DNA of 40,051 nt. Source: Clostridia bacterium. GTDB lineage: Bacteria; Bacillota; Clostridia; Oscillospirales; Acutalibacteraceae. The notes under the pieces were generated by a model that searched no databases, was not told where the DNA came from, and was given only the letters and a program-made list of their open reading frames with translations. The stretch spans positions 1 through 40,051 of the forward strand of contig JAFNZJ010000134.1 of the NCBI GenBank assembly GCA_017382915.1, read 5' to 3'. Positions within the stretch are counted from its first letter, which is position 1, and every line of letters begins with the position of its first letter. Shown here piece by piece: positions 1,803 through 9,072 of the stretch. Position numbers and translations under genes: made by a program.

Positions 1803-3248
1803 ATGAAAGAAAACTTAACCATGCTTATGGACCTGTATGAGCTTACTATGGCAAACGGAATTTTTTATTCCAAGGACAGGGATGTTATTTGTTATTTTGA
1901 TATGTTCTTTCGCCGTGTACCCGATGACGGCGGTTTTGCAATAATGGCAGGTCTTTCAAAGCTTATTGAGTATTTTAAAGAGCTTAAATTTACCGATGAT
2001 GACATTGAATATTTACGCAGCCTAAACCTTTTTGGTGATGAGTTTTTAGAATATTTAAGAAACTTTAATTTCACCTGTGATGTTTGGGCAATACCCGAAG
2101 GCACACCTATTTTCCCAAAAGAACCTATTGTGACCGTTAGGGGTCCTGCTATTCAGGCATTTTTGGTTGAAACAATGGTACTGCTTACCGTTAACCATCA
2201 GTCGCTTATTGCCACCAAGGCAAACCGTATTGTCCGCGCCGCAAACGGCAGGGCAGTTTTAGAATTTGGCGCCCGCCGTGCACACAGCTATGATGCCGCT
2301 ATGCTTGGCGCCCGCTCGGCCATAATTGGTGGTTGTGTTGGTACATCCTGCGTAAAGGCCGCAAAGGACTTTAGCGTAAAACCGTCAGGTACTATGGCAC
2401 ACAGCTGGGTACAGCTTTATAAAAGTGAGTATGAAGCCTTTAAAATCTATGCCGAACAATACCCCGACAGCTGTATGCTTTTGGTTGATACCTATAATGT
2501 ATTAAAATCGGGCATACCAAATGCAATAAAGGTGTTTAATGAGGTTGTTGTACCCAAGGGCTACCGCCCGCTAGGCGTTAGAATTGATAGTGGTGACATT
2601 ACATACCTTACCAAAAAGGTGCGTAAAATGTTGGACGATGCCGGTTTTCCCGACTGTAAAATCTGCGTTTCAAACTCACTTGATGAATATCTTATAAGGG
2701 ATATGCTTATTCAGGGTGCTGCAGTTGACAGCTTTGGTGTTGGTGAAAGGCTTATTACCGCATCATCTGAGGCCGTTTTTGGCGGTGTTTATAAGCTTGT
2801 TGCAACCCAAACTAAAGAGGGTAACATAATACCCAAAATTAAAATCAGTGAAAATACCGCTAAAATCACCATCCCATCATTTAAAAAGGCCTGGCGCCTT
2901 TTTGATAATGACACAGGCAAGGCCATTGCCGATGTTATTACCCTTTATGATGAGGTTATTGATGATACTAAGCCGTATGAAATATTTGACCCCGTACACA
3001 CCTGGAAGCGCAAAACCGTAGCCAACTTTACGGCAAAGCCGCTTGCTGTACGCATTTTTGATAAGGGTAAATGTGTTTACGCCTGCCCCAGCGTTGCCGA
3101 TTCTGCCGCATACTGCAAGCAGCAGGTTGAAACCCTTTGGGATGAGGTTAAGCGCTTTGAAAAGCCACATACCTATTATGTTGACCTTTCAAAAAATCTT
3201 TGGGAGGAACGCGCCGCTCTGTTGGAAAAATATTCCTTTAAAGGGTAG
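1803..3248 (+). CDS. pncB: nicotinate phosphoribosyltransferase
   Basis: N-terminal NLTMLMDLYELTMANG and the internal GTMAHSWVQ and RIDSGD motifs are typical of NAPRTase. I prefer ATG 1803 (AAGGGA 8 nt upstream) over the track start 1794. Confidence 0.9.
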   Translation: MKENLTMLMDLYELTMANGIFYSKDRDVICYFDMFFRRVPDDGGFAIMAGLSKLIEYFKELKFTDDDIEYLRSLNLFGDEFLEYLRNFNFTCDVWAIPEGTPIFPKEPIVTVRGPAIQAFLVETMVLLTVNHQSLIATKANRIVRAANGRAVLEFGARRAHSYDAAMLGARSAIIGGCVGTSCVKAAKDFSVKPSGTMAHSWVQLYKSEYEAFKIYAEQYPDSCMLLVDTYNVLKSGIPNAIKVFNEVVVPKGYRPLGVRIDSGDITYLTKKVRKMLDDAGFPDCKICVSNSLDEYLIRDMLIQGAAVDSFGVGERLITASSEAVFGGVYKLVATQTKEGNIIPKIKISENTAKITIPSFKKAWRLFDNDTGKAIADVITLYDEVIDDTKPYEIFDPVHTWKRKTVANFTAKPLAVRIFDKGKCVYACPSVADSAAYCKQQVETLWDEVKRFEKPHTYYVDLSKNLWEERAALLEKYSFKG

Positions 3249-4743: not shown

Positions 4744-6192
4744 ATGTCAAACTACAATCCAAAATCACTTAAAGCAGAGGAATTTATAAGCGATAGCGAA
4801 ATTTTAGAAACCCTGCGCTATGCTGAAGAAAATAAAAACAACACTCAGCTTATTGATGAAATTTTAGAAAAAGCAAGACCTAAAAAAACCGCCGATGGTG
4901 TAAAATGTGCAGGTCTTACCCACCGCGAAGCATCGGTACTGCTTGCCTGTGAGGACAAGGAAAAAATAAACCAAATGTTTGAATTGGCAGAGGAAATTAA
5001 GCAGGCATTTTACGGCAACCGAATTGTTATGTTTGCACCGCTTTACCTTTCAAACTACTGCGTAAACGGTTGTACCTACTGTCCATACCACTATCAAAAC
5101 AAACATATCTGCCGTAAAAAACTAACTCAAGAAGAAATTAAGGCAGAGGTTATAGCCCTGCAGGATATGGGTCATAAGCGCCTAGCCATTGAAGCGGGCG
5201 AAGACCCCGTTAACAACCCCATTGAATATATTTTAGAAAGCATTAAAACCATTTACAGCATACACCATAAAAACGGTGATATAAGAAGGGTTAATGTAAA
5301 CATTGCCGCCACCACGGTTGAAAATTACCGCAAGCTTAAAGAGGCCGGCATTGGCACATACATTCTGTTCCAAGAAACCTATCATAAAGAAAGCTATGAA
5401 AAACTGCACCCAACAGGTCCAAAGCACAATTATGCCTACCATACCGAGGCTATGGACCGCGCTATGGAGGGCGGTATTGATGATGTTGGTCTTGGTGTAC
5501 TGTTTGGACTGGAGCTTTATAAATATGAATTTGCGGGTCTTTTAATGCATGCCGAGCATTTAGAGGCGGTGCATGGTGTTGGTCCCCACACCATTAGTGT
5601 ACCAAGACTTAAAAGGGCAGATGATATTGACCCAAATCAGTTTGACAACGGTATATCGGATGAAATTTTTGAAAAAATTATTGCCTGCATTCGCATTGCT
5701 GTACCCTACACAGGTATGATAATTTCTACCAGAGAAAGTGAAGCGGTGCGCGGCAGGGCACTTCGCCTTGGTATTTCACAAATCAGCGGTGCTTCAAGAA
5801 CATCGGTTGGCGGCTACACCGAAGAGGAGCGCCCACACGATTCTGAACAGTTTGATGTTTCTGACCAACGCACCCTTGATGAGGTTGTAAGGTGGCTTAT
5901 GGAACTGGACCACATCCCTTCATTCTGTACCGCCTGCTACCGTGAGGGCAGAACAGGTGACCGCTTTATGCAGCTTTGTAAAAACGGTCAAATCCTTAAC
6001 TGCTGTCACCCCAACGCACTTATGACCCTTACCGAATATTTGGTGGACTACGCAAGTGAGGAAACCAAAAAAGTGGGCTTTGCACTTATTGAGAAAGAAC
6101 TTGGTAAAATCCCCAAAGAAAAGGTTAAAAATATAGCCGAGGATAATATTAAGCAAATCAAAGCATCAAACAGACGCGATTTTCGTTTTTAA
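4744..6192 (+). CDS. hydG: [FeFe] hydrogenase H-cluster radical SAM maturase HydG
   Basis: ATG 4744 with AAGGAAG upstream. Radical SAM motif CVNGCTYCPY and the C-terminal Cys cluster (CTACYR...C) are typical of the ThiH-like HydG. Confidence 0.85.
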   Translation: MSNYNPKSLKAEEFISDSEILETLRYAEENKNNTQLIDEILEKARPKKTADGVKCAGLTHREASVLLACEDKEKINQMFELAEEIKQAFYGNRIVMFAPLYLSNYCVNGCTYCPYHYQNKHICRKKLTQEEIKAEVIALQDMGHKRLAIEAGEDPVNNPIEYILESIKTIYSIHHKNGDIRRVNVNIAATTVENYRKLKEAGIGTYILFQETYHKESYEKLHPTGPKHNYAYHTEAMDRAMEGGIDDVGLGVLFGLELYKYEFAGLLMHAEHLEAVHGVGPHTISVPRLKRADDIDPNQFDNGISDEIFEKIIACIRIAVPYTGMIISTRESEAVRGRALRLGISQISGASRTSVGGYTEEERPHDSEQFDVSDQRTLDEVVRWLMELDHIPSFCTACYREGRTGDRFMQLCKNGQILNCCHPNALMTLTEYLVDYASEETKKVGFALIEKELGKIPKEKVKNIAEDNIKQIKASNRRDFRF

Positions 6193-7442: not shown

Positions 7443-7473
7443 CCCCGCCTTTTTTTCAAGGCGGGGTGTTTAT
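7443..7473 (+). terminator. hairpin terminator after hydF
   Basis: CCCCGCC (7443-7449) pairs with GGCGGGG (7460-7466) around a T-rich loop, followed by TGTTTAT. Confidence 0.55.
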
Positions 7474-7500
7474 GTAGCAAAAAAGCCAACCGAAAATGAG

Positions 7501-7628
7501 TAGGGTTGCTAAGGACAGTTTTCTTTAATAAAAGCGAAATTTTGCACACAAATTTCCTGCTTGCAACAGCATAAGACAAAACTACCCGAAGAAGAGAAAA
7601 TAAAACTCTTTTTCGGGTAGTAATTTTT
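7501..7628 (+). ncRNA. candidate structured RNA module (TAGGG start, hairpin, CCTGCTTG box, AAGACAAAAC box, terminator-like 15-bp stem plus T-run)
   Basis: Hairpin GAAATTT/AAATTTC (7536-7556). Stem CTACCCGAAGAAGAG/CTCTTTTTCGGGTAG (7582-7620), then TAATTTTT. It aligns with 39881-40000 with compensatory changes in both stems. The strand and RNA nature are inferred, not shown. Confidence 0.4.
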
Positions 7629-7632
7629 ATAT

Positions 7633-7786
7633 AGTGATATTCTGTGCTAAACGCACAGAGTGATATTTCCCTTTCGGAAAGTGATATTGAAATCTTACGA
7701 TTTTAAGTGATATTTTATTCGCCAAAAACTGCCGAAGGCAATATCACTTGAACGAAGTTCAAATATCACTGCAAAGCAATATCACT
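7633..7786. repeat. array of 9-nt repeats: 4 x AGTGATATT followed by 3 x AATATCACT (its reverse complement), separated by unique self-complementary spacers
   Basis: Direct copies start at 7633, 7659, 7680 and 7706. Inverted copies start at 7740, 7762 and 7778. The spacers are mini-hairpins (for example CTGTGC-TAAAC-GCACAG, AAATC-TTAC-GATTT, TGAAC-GAA-GTTCA and CGCC-GCAA-GGCG). Confidence 0.85.
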
Positions 7787-7807
7787 CGCCGCAAGGCGAA
7801 TAAAACT

Positions 7808-7835
7808 GCCCAAGTTTCCTTAAGAACACTTGGGC
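7808..7835 (-). terminator. hairpin terminator after lysC
   Basis: GCCCAAGT (7808-7815) pairs with ACTTGGGC (7828-7835). On the minus strand it is followed by AGTTTTATT. Confidence 0.5.
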
Positions 7836-7866
7836 AATTCGGTTGGCTTTTTATTTACTTATTTGC

Positions 7867-9072
7867 TTATCTTACGAAAGCATCGTGAACGGCTTCAACT
7901 GCACGGTCGGCCTTTTCAACATCAATTAAAACTGAAATTTTAATTTCACTGGTTGAAATCATATGAATGTTAATGTTTGCATCATAAAGGGCTTCAAACA
8001 TTTTGGCAGCAACGCCGGGGTGGGTTTGCATACCGGTACCAACAATTGAAACCTTGGCTACTGTTTCATCGTGGGCTACGCTTGAATACTTAAGTGAATC
8101 CTTAAGCTTTTCAACTGCGGCAATAGCATCAGCACACTGGTCCTGTGAAACAGTAAAGGTAATATCCTTAGTGCCGTCACGACCTACCGACTGTAAAATA
8201 ATATCTACATTGATTTTTGCCTGACCTAAGGCATTAAAAAGCTTAAAGGCTGTACCGGGGTGGTCGGTAAGACCAACAACCGATATACGGGATACATTTT
8301 TATCACAAGCGGCACCGCGAACTAACATTTTTTCCATTTTAACTGTCTCCTTTACTATTGTACCGGGTTTAGATTCTAAACTAGAAAGCACTTCTAACTC
8401 AACATTATATTTTTTTGCCATTTCAACCGAACGGCTGTTAAGTACCTGTGCACCAAGGGATGCAAGCTCTAACATTTCATCGTAGGTTATTTCATCAATC
8501 TTAACGGCGTTTTTAACCTTGCGTGGGTCGGCGGTGTAAACACCGTCAACATCGGTGTAGATTTGGCAAAGGTCGGCTTTAAGGCTTGCGGCAATGGCAA
8601 CGGCGCTGGTATCAGAGCCACCACGACCAAGTGTTGTAACATCATCATATTTATTTATGCCCTGGAAGCCCGCAACAACAACTATATTACGGCGTGCAAG
8701 CTCAGCCTTAAGGCGTTCAGATTCAATTCTTTTAATTCTGGCTACGGTGTAGTTGGAGTCGGTTTGAAAGCCTGCCTGCCAGCCAAGAAGTGAAACAACG
8801 GGGTAACCCATCCTTTCAATTGCCATTGCTAAAAGTGAAATTGAAATTTGCTCACCTGCGGAAAGCAGCATATCCATCTCTCTTTTAGATGCGGTGGGGT
8901 TAATCTCCTTAGCCTTTGCTATAAGGTCATCGGTGGTATCACCCTGAGCCGAAACAACAACCACTACATTATTGCCTTTTTTATACTCATCTGTTACAAT
9001 GCGGGCAACATTATTTACCCTTTCGGCATTGGCAACCGAGCTGCCGCCGAACTTTTTGACTATTAGTGCCAT
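7867..9072 (-). CDS. lysC: aspartate kinase (monofunctional, two ACT domains)
   Basis: 401 aa. N-terminal ALIVKKFGGSSV, the GRGGSDT motif and a C-terminal tandem ACT region. Confidence 0.9.
   Translation of the reverse strand: MALIVKKFGGSSVANAERVNNVARIVTDEYKKGNNVVVVVSAQGDTTDDLIAKAKEINPTASKREMDMLLSAGEQISISLLAMAIERMGYPVVSLLGWQAGFQTDSNYTVARIKRIESERLKAELARRNIVVVAGFQGINKYDDVTTLGRGGSDTSAVAIAASLKADLCQIYTDVDGVYTADPRKVKNAVKIDEITYDEMLELASLGAQVLNSRSVEMAKKYNVELEVLSSLESKPGTIVKETVKMEKMLVRGAACDKNVSRISVVGLTDHPGTAFKLFNALGQAKINVDIILQSVGRDGTKDITFTVSQDQCADAIAAVEKLKDSLKYSSVAHDETVAKVSIVGTGMQTHPGVAAKMFEALYDANINIHMISTSEIKISVLIDVEKADRAVEAVHDAFVR

Follow-up and report, generated by a model that had tools for sequence, protein, structure and literature searches.

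A dispersed element between hydF and lysC suggests a place for the orphan Gut-1 motif in a family of jumping elements of gut Clostridia

We analyzed a 40,051-nt stretch of DNA from a Clostridia bacterium of the family Acutalibacteraceae (contig JAFNZJ010000134.1 of assembly GCA_017382915.1, positions 1 to 40,051; here called the window), in which the gap between two convergent genes, hydF and lysC (HydF and aspartate kinase by Pfam), holds an ornate stretch of 373 bp (7480 to 7852). On the basis of alignments with loci elsewhere, the interior of this stretch (7495 to 7837; 343 bp; minus strand) is probably a mobile element that resembles a miniature inverted-repeat transposable element (MITE), contains the Gut-1 motif (RF01706) of Rfam, and is lodged in the loop of a transcription terminator. 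The element family is widespread in uncultured gut Clostridia, and the comparison suggests that the orphan motif Gut-1 is to be counted among the jumping elements of these bacteria.

An earlier note on this DNA, made from the letters alone, had described boundary repeats, direct and reverse repeats, a small hairpin, and hairpin spacers, all of which lie where it placed them. Its stem with a following T-run is also present (16 bp instead of the 15 bp given there), and a long-range pairing that it had noted is real and longer than described (11 nt at 100% complementarity; 7713 to 7723 with 7795 to 7805). The gap is noncoding: the longest open reading frames (ORFs) are 48 and 46 aa, in line with the earlier statement that none reaches 60 aa. 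The motif GTGAWATT occurs 21 times in the window versus 3.98 ± 2.18 times in shuffled sequences (0 of 100 shuffles attained 21), and 7 of these 21 matches fall inside 152 nt.

A dispersed unit between the arms of host terminators

Three collections were scanned: genomes, one per species, with a sequence pattern (at least 120 loci); viral contigs, with the same kind of pattern (105 matches among those listed); and metagenomes, with a 21-mer from the core of the element (46 loci). In the metagenomes, the 343-bp unit of the window recurs at 85 to 95% identity in at least 10 unrelated contexts, as window-type copies (L261, L263, L270, L273, L275, and L295/L299) or as a second variant (L277, L297, L298, L302, and L305). 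The whole unit of 343 to 360 bp is common to both types, including a module (7501 to 7632) that the earlier note had singled out for a search in related sequences. The window copy aligns end to end with L263, L273, L275, L277, L302, and L305, outside which the sequences are unrelated. It also matches a copy downstream of gpmI in a Ruminococcus metagenome-assembled genome (MAG; L018), with 88% identity between the start of its left-end hairpin (7836/7837) and approximately 7561; the flanks are likewise unrelated, and the neighboring genes differ. A BOX- or MITE-like mobile repeat had been among the three earlier options, and it is the one supported by a unit that, at 343 bp, is shorter than the approximately 600 bp that bounds MITEs, has terminal inverted repeats, carries no transposase ORF, and occurs in many unrelated contexts.

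The ends of the element were compared in 10 distinct loci in which an outer inverted repeat brackets it (the window, L263, L273, L275, L277, L302, L305, L294, L264, and L287). Imperfect terminal inverted repeats of 16 to 25 bp (..TAAGGACA..) are found in all 10. The right end of the window copy (7495 to 7523; plus strand) contains the repeat core GGGTTGCTAAGGACAGT (7503 to 7519), and its reverse complement aligns with the left end, in which the core occupies 7813 to 7830. Thus, ..GTGTTCTTAAGGAMACTT.. at the left end is an imperfect match to the reverse complement of the right end, ..GGGTTSCTAAGGACAGTT.., and a further view of the pair is ..GTGTTCTTAAGGAMAC.. versus the reverse complement ..GGGTTSCTAAGGACAG..; the terminal inverted repeat of L294 is perfect over 13 bp (TAGGCGTTGTACC).

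The outer bracket is a perfect inverted repeat of 10 to 17 bp, unrelated in sequence at each of the 10 loci, with an A-run and a T-run on opposite sides. In the window, the first arm, AAAAAGCCAACCGAA (7480 to 7494; hydF side), is the exact complement of the second, TTCGGTTGGCTTTTT (7838 to 7852), which lies 14 nt past the lysC stop codon, and the A-run/T-run layout is that of the nine other loci. The 5' and 3' arms of these loci are, respectively, AAGAGCCATCCCG and CGGGATGGCTCTT (L263), AAAAAGACAGAG and CTCTGTCTTTTT (L273), AAAAAAGAACTGTC and GACAGTTCTTTTTT (L275), AAAACTCGGTTCTC and GAGAACCGAGTTTT (L277), AAAATAAAACTCGGTGC and GCACCGAGTTTTATTTT (L302), AAAAAAGTCC(A)CTGC and GCAG(C)GGACTTTTTT (L305), AAAAAAGAACCAGATAC and GTATCTGGTTCTTTTTT (L294), AAAAATACTGTGCC and GGCACAGTATTTTT (L264), and AAAGAGAACC and GGTTCTCTTT (L287). 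The 5' arm lies 0 to 14 nt past a co-directional stop codon in 8 of the 10 loci (the stop codon overlaps the arm in the other 2), and in 6 of the 10, the 3' arm is followed after 6 to 63 nt by the end of a convergent ORF. By themselves, the arms fold at -13 to -25 kcal/mol; for the arms of the window with a GAAA loop between them, the value is -21.7 kcal/mol.

Because the arms combine a locus-specific sequence with A-run/T-run flanks and an adjoining stop codon, we read them as the arms of host terminators that were split by an insertion, and not, as first proposed for the 15-bp repeats of the window, as the boundaries of the element. Since unrelated arms surround interiors that are 85 to 95% identical, the capture of host hairpins explains the bracket far better than gradual covariation does. 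The host structure would be a bidirectional intrinsic terminator downstream of lysC, with the element in its apical loop. L273 and L277 carry orthologous genes (79% DNA identity) followed by different terminators, each of which contains a Gut-1 element, in opposite orientations; according to the all-against-all BLAST comparison of flanks, these are therefore independent insertions. The polarity of the element is constant, i.e., always co-directional with the upstream gene or tRNA.

Gut-1 is one half of a larger conserved core

The Rfam model of Gut-1 (77 positions; gathering score, 50 bits) matches the minus strand of the window over its full length (7736 to 7808; model positions 1 to 77; 56.9 bits; E = 7.8e-09). 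This match overturns the earlier claim that the stretch belongs to no named RNA family, a confident Rfam hit being that note's own test of novelty. Gut-1 was described in 2010 by Weinberg et al. as a candidate noncoding RNA from human-gut metagenomes, at a time when no sequenced organism was known to carry it (PMC2864571). In Rfam it is typed as "Gene; sRNA" (small RNA) with no known function, and our full-text literature searches returned no paper on Gut-1 besides the 2010 description.

Alignment to the model shows the hallmark of Gut-1 in the window, i.e., three variable hairpins with GUGAAAU/GUGAUAU linkers. These form a 3-unit array of GTGATAT linkers on the minus strand (7740 to 7748, 7762 to 7770, and 7778 to 7786) with hairpin spacers between them and a central hairpin beside it (7730 to 7740). 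Read on the plus strand, the linkers are copies of AATATCACT (starts at 7740, 7762, and 7778), the reverse complement of AGTGATATT. Four direct copies of AGTGATATT on the plus strand (starts at 7633, 7659, 7680, and 7706), separated by three hairpin spacers, make up a 4-unit array (7633 to 7714), which mirrors the Gut-1 half, lies outside the Rfam model, and gives a weak Gut-1-like match below the gathering score (31.1 bits). Every spacer between repeats in the window folds as a hairpin. Thus, the Gut-1 model covers only half of a larger conserved core of 3 + 4 units. The flanked seed alignment of Weinberg et al. (e.g., BAAZ01000095) displays the same layout, with three GUGAUAUU, a GCCnnnGGC hairpin at the center, GGCGAAUAUA, and four AAUAUCAC inside an outer inverted repeat; the model did not cover this layout.

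The core is shared among many loci. Of 20 related loci, 14 give a Gut-1 score above the gathering threshold, each time on the counterpart of the minus strand of the window, and 14 of the 20 likewise show the variable hairpins with their conserved linkers. The common 3 + 4 architecture was found in approximately 20 genome loci among the matches listed. All spacers are hairpins in 61 of 110 genome loci versus 4 of 105 viral matches (again among the matches listed). The host genomes are MAGs of gut Clostridia (Oscillospiraceae, Acutalibacteraceae, Ruminococcus, Christensenellaceae, and "Eubacteriales"). In the reference orientation of Rfam (T1; the minus strand of the window, co-directional with lysC), the core begins with the left-end hairpin (hp0), a T-rich tract and CA(A/G)YKAWAT, and a segment (X) with a small hairpin, which are followed by three GTGAWAT linkers with hairpins, a segment complementary to X, and four ATWTCAC linkers with hairpins. 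The linkers are GTGAAAT or GTGATAT according to the lineage, and both arrays switch together (linker position 5, A or T). In the window, the middle segment TTTTATTCGCC.. (7713 to 7725) provides the complement to 7795 to 7805 and competes with a local hairpin (7786 to 7799); elsewhere, the pairing of X with its complement is maintained with other sequences (GAAATTCGCC/GGCGAATTTC, GAAATAAATCC/GGATTTATTTC, and AAATTTGCCC/GGGCAAATTT).

The repeats are not CRISPR-like, as had been stated before: they measure 7 to 9 bp, against 23 to 50 bp in CRISPR arrays, their spacers are palindromic and of 11 to 19 bp, and the only match to a CRISPR direct-repeat model reaches 18.8 bits versus a gathering score of 48.

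Arrays with GTGAAAT or GTGATAT linkers were also seen in MAGs binned beyond the Clostridia, i.e., Akkermansia (L017:2314-3301; three arrays at a spacing of approximately 450 nt), Akkermansiaceae (L025), and Terriglobales (L027). At L023:3330-4020 and L013:4815-4985, hairpin arrays with another fixed linker (CATCAT or TATATCATCA) adjoin GTGAAAT arrays. The design of a fixed linker with variable hairpins may be more general than Gut-1.

Predicted terminators at both ends

Two hairpins with T-runs enclose the core of the window copy. The left-end hairpin hp0 (TGCCCAAGT..ACTTGGGCA, then UUUUAUU; 7807 to 7836; minus strand) is kept in all window-type copies and faces transcription from the lysC direction; its single wobble pair is T.G in the minus-strand sense. 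The hairpin hpT (7581 to 7596 with 7606 to 7621; 16-bp stem; plus strand), which is also kept in window-type copies, is followed by AAUUUUUAU (T-run, 7622 to 7630) and faces transcription from the hydF side; its single non-Watson-Crick pair is G.T in the plus sense and A.C in the minus sense. We predict that hp0 and hpT are inward-facing terminators, one for each end, and that hp0 replaces the terminator of lysC. Terminators at both ends would restore termination for the neighbors and render the insertion harmless to the flanking genes, and the arrays between them would be left largely untranscribed from outside.

Read along the minus strand, the element opens with its left terminal inverted repeat in the form of hp0 and a U-tract that would re-create the lysC terminator and continues with Gut-1 and its three GUGAUAU linkers. 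Next come the mirror array of four AUAUCAC linkers, hpT, and a right-hand module that closes with the right terminal inverted repeat. A small internal hairpin, GAAATTT-TGCACAC-AAATTTC (7536 to 7556), belongs to this right-hand module, which is kept in L261, L263, L273, L275, L295, and L299.

A sigma-70 scan of the window revealed nothing beyond expectation (3 sites versus 1.8 expected), and inspection by eye found no consistent promoter upstream of either array. A candidate promoter within the 4-unit array (TTGAAA-17-TGnTATTAT) is present in the GTGATAT subfamily only.

Hairpin statistics favor a DNA-level role of the arrays

The stems of the arrays comprise approximately 1,309 Watson-Crick pairs versus 19 G.T and 24 A.C pairs, with no excess of G-U on either strand. 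The loops are biased toward one strand: among 304 distinct hairpins, 145 show G-N-A or G-N-N-A loops on the ATWTCAC strand (C-G is the closing pair in 135), and only 5 show them on the other strand. This bias holds for both arrays relative to their own linkers, and the core therefore behaves like an inverted duplication. Hairpins of the c-GNA-g and c-GNNA-g types correspond to mini-hairpin DNA (GCGNAGC/GCGNNAGC), which is extraordinarily stable as DNA and much less so as RNA (PMC13037366); such mini-hairpins are known at the primase recognition sites of single-stranded DNA (ssDNA) origins and bind single-stranded DNA-binding protein (SSB) poorly (PMC13037366). Together, the loop bias, the lack of a G-U excess, and the inward-facing terminators favor a DNA-level role of the arrays.

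We therefore put forward, tentatively and with less confidence than the mobile-element reading itself, that the arrays act as mini-hairpin DNA, single stranded or extruded by supercoiling, that is recognized by a trans-acting protein. Mini-hairpins spaced by a fixed motif of 7 to 9 nt could serve as a recognition platform for the mobility of the element or for control of a cargo promoter, and the protein might be a transposase or a four-helix-bundle protein of PF05635, the gene for which is present in many relatives. An ssDNA-active site was among the options raised previously, and for the arrays that option stays alive, given the absence of a G-U excess and the presence of DNA mini-hairpin loops on one strand.

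Relatives that carry cargo genes

Larger relatives carry small cargo genes. L264 and three equivalent loci (1,030 to 1,050 bp; L264, 1,050 bp) enclose a DMP19-like gene (PF14300) and have a Gut-1 unit at each end, in inverted orientation; L294 (1,741 bp) encloses a DUF1643 gene (PF07799) and two small ORFs within the same kind of bracket, and L287 (826 bp) is bracketed in the same way. In L262, L264, L266, L287, and L292, a consensus promoter (TTGAAA-17-TATAAT) lies directly against the last repeat and is oriented outward from the arrays. Approximately 12 loci have a gene for PF05635 ("23S rRNA-intervening sequence protein"; an Avd-like four-helix bundle) within approximately 300 nt of the arrays; in the copies that were read in detail, it starts 30 to 55 nt past the fourth repeat. 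A diversity-generating retroelement was considered and rejected, since no ORF of the size of a reverse transcriptase lies beside the PF05635 gene in L024, L036, L039, L060, L080, or L119.

A bolder reading is that Gut-1 elements are undescribed mobile cassettes that target DNA hairpin loops, with the arrays as an ssDNA module and the PF05635 protein as a hairpin-binding factor. By analogy, the loops of 23S rRNA helices 25 and 45 might then be another target class. We consider this reading unlikely; if true, it would jointly explain the Gut-1 motif, the intervening sequences (IVSs) of rRNA, and the scattered PF05635 genes.

At L080 (approximately 560 to 1450), a Gut-1 unit and a PF05635 gene lie between direct repeats of approximately 45 nt that contain a terminator (CCAAATGTAAAAAGCTCCGATGAATATCGGGGCTTTT). 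It is the second case of a cassette between duplicated terminators. The first, L004:4590-6345, is the same hydF/lysC locus in another sample, where a 1.7-kb segment with four small ORFs (112, 143, 81, and 65 aa; two hydrophobic) separates the element from hydF on a scaffold that contains a run of N. The segment is flanked by two near-identical hydF terminators (ACACCCCGCCTTGCTTTnGGCAAAGCGGGGG) and has the appearance of an inserted cassette accompanied by terminator duplication.

The lysC locus and other genomic contexts

The element is present in all 21 contigs with an identical LysC and in a relative at 99% identity. Relatives with LysC identities of 98%, 91%, 90%, 85%, and 81% have a plain, different terminator without the element and different downstream genes; in the strains at 98%, genes for GtrA and a flavoprotein are found downstream in place of hydF. 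The 3' end of lysC is thus a synteny breakpoint (window positions 7867 to 9072; L251, L308, and L309). Upstream of the split terminator, hydF has an intrinsic terminator of its own (7443 to 7466; CCCCGCCTT-TTTTTC-AAGGCGGGG and a T-run); because this terminator is separate, the split one probably originates from lysC or from the ancestral junction.

Several contigs contain multiple units (L069, L130, L291, and L264). Near-identical direct units at L069:232-385 and 2971-3124 flank 2.6 kb with genes for a histidine phosphatase, a pyrophosphatase-like protein, and a methyltransferase; those at L130:4317-4468 and 5032-5183 have starts 0.7 kb apart; and near-identical Gut-1 units stand in tandem, in direct orientation, at L291:9954-10404. 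At L123:1940-2853, a Gut-1 element ends an rRNA operon (23S, 5S, tRNA-Lys, tRNA-Glu, and tRNA-Asn, then hp0 and the arrays). A tRNA gene lies directly upstream in approximately 12 of 40 loci; a tRNA-linked att integration site was rejected, as the tRNAs are of many kinds and no integrase was noticed nearby.

Opposing points and alternative explanations

Several observations weigh against insertion into terminator loops or against a DNA-level role. No empty (i.e., uninterrupted) site was found among the LysC relatives or by all-against-all BLAST of the flanks of the fetched loci, and because no empty terminator copy was recovered, the insertion is deduced from the pattern of the copies. MITEs are expected to have an autonomous copy with a transposase and the same ends, whereas the larger copies here carry DMP19-like, DUF1643, or PF05635 genes; no transposase was found in the ORFs of the bracketed larger elements or by a scan of the fetched loci for pairs of terminal inverted repeats, in collections that were only partly searchable. 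TT or TA stands at both junctions in 10 of 10 loci, and a 2-bp target-site duplication is possible, but the loops of terminators are T-rich anyway. The tRNA-adjacent copies of the GTGAAAT type lack a split terminator, and the terminator-loop target was seen only in the window-type subfamily. GNA and GNRA loops are also favorable in RNA. Finally, simpler relatives (L098, L055, L020, and L023) have a single array that, on the GTGAWAT strand, is preceded by a stop codon and followed by a T-run terminator, a layout that looks like a transcribed 3' untranslated region (UTR) and favors an RNA role there.

Gut-1 might accordingly be a structured sRNA or 3'-UTR element in the GUGAWAU sense, in which the linkers bind copies of an RNA-binding protein, the hairpins serve as spacers, and the features of a mobile element are secondary. 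The simpler relatives would fit such a role (L098, L020, and L023 in particular), as would the covariance model matched above its gathering score, the hairpins whose sequences vary while their pairing stays, and the co-directional position behind a gene or tRNA, with the element often closing a tRNA or rRNA operon whose transcription is probably strong. The details of the arrays point the other way. G-U pairs are no commoner than A-C pairs (19 versus 24 in approximately 1,350 pairs), which is unusual for an RNA under structural selection, and the stable loops lie on the strand opposite to the Rfam orientation. Moreover, the interval from hp0 to the array has no room for a promoter, hp0 with its U-tract is a terminator in its own right, and the consensus promoter of the cargo versions follows the arrays and is directed away from them. 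We thus regard the sRNA or 3'-UTR explanation as unlikely.

According to another explanation, the repeats are operator or iteron sites in double-stranded DNA for a regulator of the abutting cargo promoter (e.g., autoregulation by the PF05635 protein) and the window copy is a cargo-less relic. In the five loci named above, the consensus promoter begins where the last repeat stops and drives the cargo gene, PF05635 genes follow the arrays in approximately 12 loci, and the arrays are shielded from outside transcription. However, the spacing of the repeats is variable (16 to 26 bp in the window and 13 to 40 bp elsewhere) and without helical phasing, the near-perfectly palindromic, changing spacers and the strand bias of the loops are left unexplained, and copies without cargo keep their arrays. 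Such operator sites are, in our judgment, quite unlikely.

A further idea is one large RNA spanning 7480 to 7852 (373 nt), with a covarying 15-bp closing helix, paired linkers, and a rod of multiway junctions. Compared with shuffled sequences, both strands fold strongly (z = -9.9 and -11.7 as RNA; -10.0 as DNA), the minimum free energy folds of both strands close the ends and pair GUGAUAUU with AAUAUCAC, RNAalifold retains an outer helix in which both sides have changed at many positions, and linker position 5 changes jointly in the two arrays. Yet the arms that would form the closing helix are unrelated in sequence and length around near-identical interiors, with A-run/T-run flanks and adjoining stop codons; the helix is absent in L018 and in the tRNA-adjacent copies; and both internal terminators would halt the transcript. 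In addition, the linkers of the 3-unit array drift in L053, L068, L078, L033, L035, and L039 (GTTATAT and ATACCAC) while those of the 4-unit array stay GTGATAT; pairing between the arrays is therefore not required. The large structured RNA that the earlier note had entertained is thus very improbable in the form closed by the 15-bp stem.

Equally improbable are single-strand initiation or origin-like signals of the kind of ssiA/ssiB of RSF1010 or the complementary-strand origin of phage G4: the stable mini-hairpins on the strand running 5' to 3' outward from the center on each side, with their c-GNA-g loops, would fit this geometry, and similar mini-hairpins with poor SSB binding occur at primase sites in ssDNA origins (PMC13037366), but the elements have no associated replication protein gene, are chromosomal in several, sometimes tandem copies per genome, and have no plasmid matches and almost none in phages. 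An origin of phage or plasmid descent was rejected, given hairpin spacers in only 4 of the 105 viral matches listed and no plasmid match. The sole phage or plasmid match is partial (window positions 7707 to 7808 at 81.6% identity) and lies in an unannotated "Bacteriophage sp." from human feces (MT835815.1:5074-5174).

Implications and comparison with known systems

Since 2010, Gut-1 has stood in Rfam as a human-gut-only sRNA without a host, context, or function. It now gains hosts (Oscillospirales-type gut Clostridia of humans and ruminants), a full architecture, and a genomic context. If the mobile-element reading is true, an orphan "RNA" would have to be reannotated as a mobile-element module, with an unusual target in the loops of hairpins and with termination restored on both sides. 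It would also provide a testable lead that links PF05635 proteins with the intervening sequences of rRNA. In abundant gut species, the elements also flag breakpoints of synteny and insertions of cassettes, a point of relevance to the assembly of MAGs and to pangenomes.

The element shares with the bacterial MITEs (e.g., Correia elements, RUP, and BOX) a small, noncoding, and intergenic nature, terminal inverted repeats, built-in terminators, and the existence of larger relatives. Unlike them, it has no known parent transposase, its target is a terminator loop instead of a short sequence, its interior consists of ordered variable hairpins with fixed linkers, and its larger relatives carry non-transposase cargo. 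Literature searches returned no description of terminator-loop MITEs in Firmicutes. Repetitive extragenic palindromic (REP) sequences and bacterial interspersed mosaic elements (BIMEs) are palindromes that follow genes and often stand between convergent genes, as here, and the insertion sequences IS1397 and ISKpn1 insert into REP/BIME loops, which provides a precedent for hairpin-loop insertion. In REP/BIMEs the palindromes, in units of approximately 35 bp, are conserved and the linkers variable, whereas the element has the reverse arrangement, as the earlier note had argued correctly; in addition, neither a REP-associated tyrosine transposase (RAYT)-like gene nor an IS3-family gene was seen in the flanks.

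The Rfam entry for Gut-1 agrees with the window in its three small hairpins with GUGAWAU and in its source in organisms of gut metagenomes. It differs in that the model describes an sRNA of approximately 75 nt, while in the window the motif is half of an inverted 3 + 4 array within a 343-bp dispersed element, with statistics of pairing and loops that are not RNA-like. The early promoters of phage N4, the complementary-strand origin of G4, and ssiA/ssiB of RSF1010 resemble the arrays in their short stems, their c-GNA-g/c-GNNA-g loops, and their stability on one strand. Those signals are single hairpins with a known polymerase or primase, in contrast to 3 + 4 arrays that have a fixed linker and no known protein partner. 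The IVSs of 23S rRNA (e.g., in Coxiella; PMC4990558) offer another analogy, as selfish inserts at the tip of a host hairpin that are bracketed by the host stem. Their host structure is rRNA helix 45 or 25 instead of a terminator, and no excision by RNase III is implied for the element. Like the relatives of the element, some IVS copies encode a PF05635 four-helix-bundle protein.

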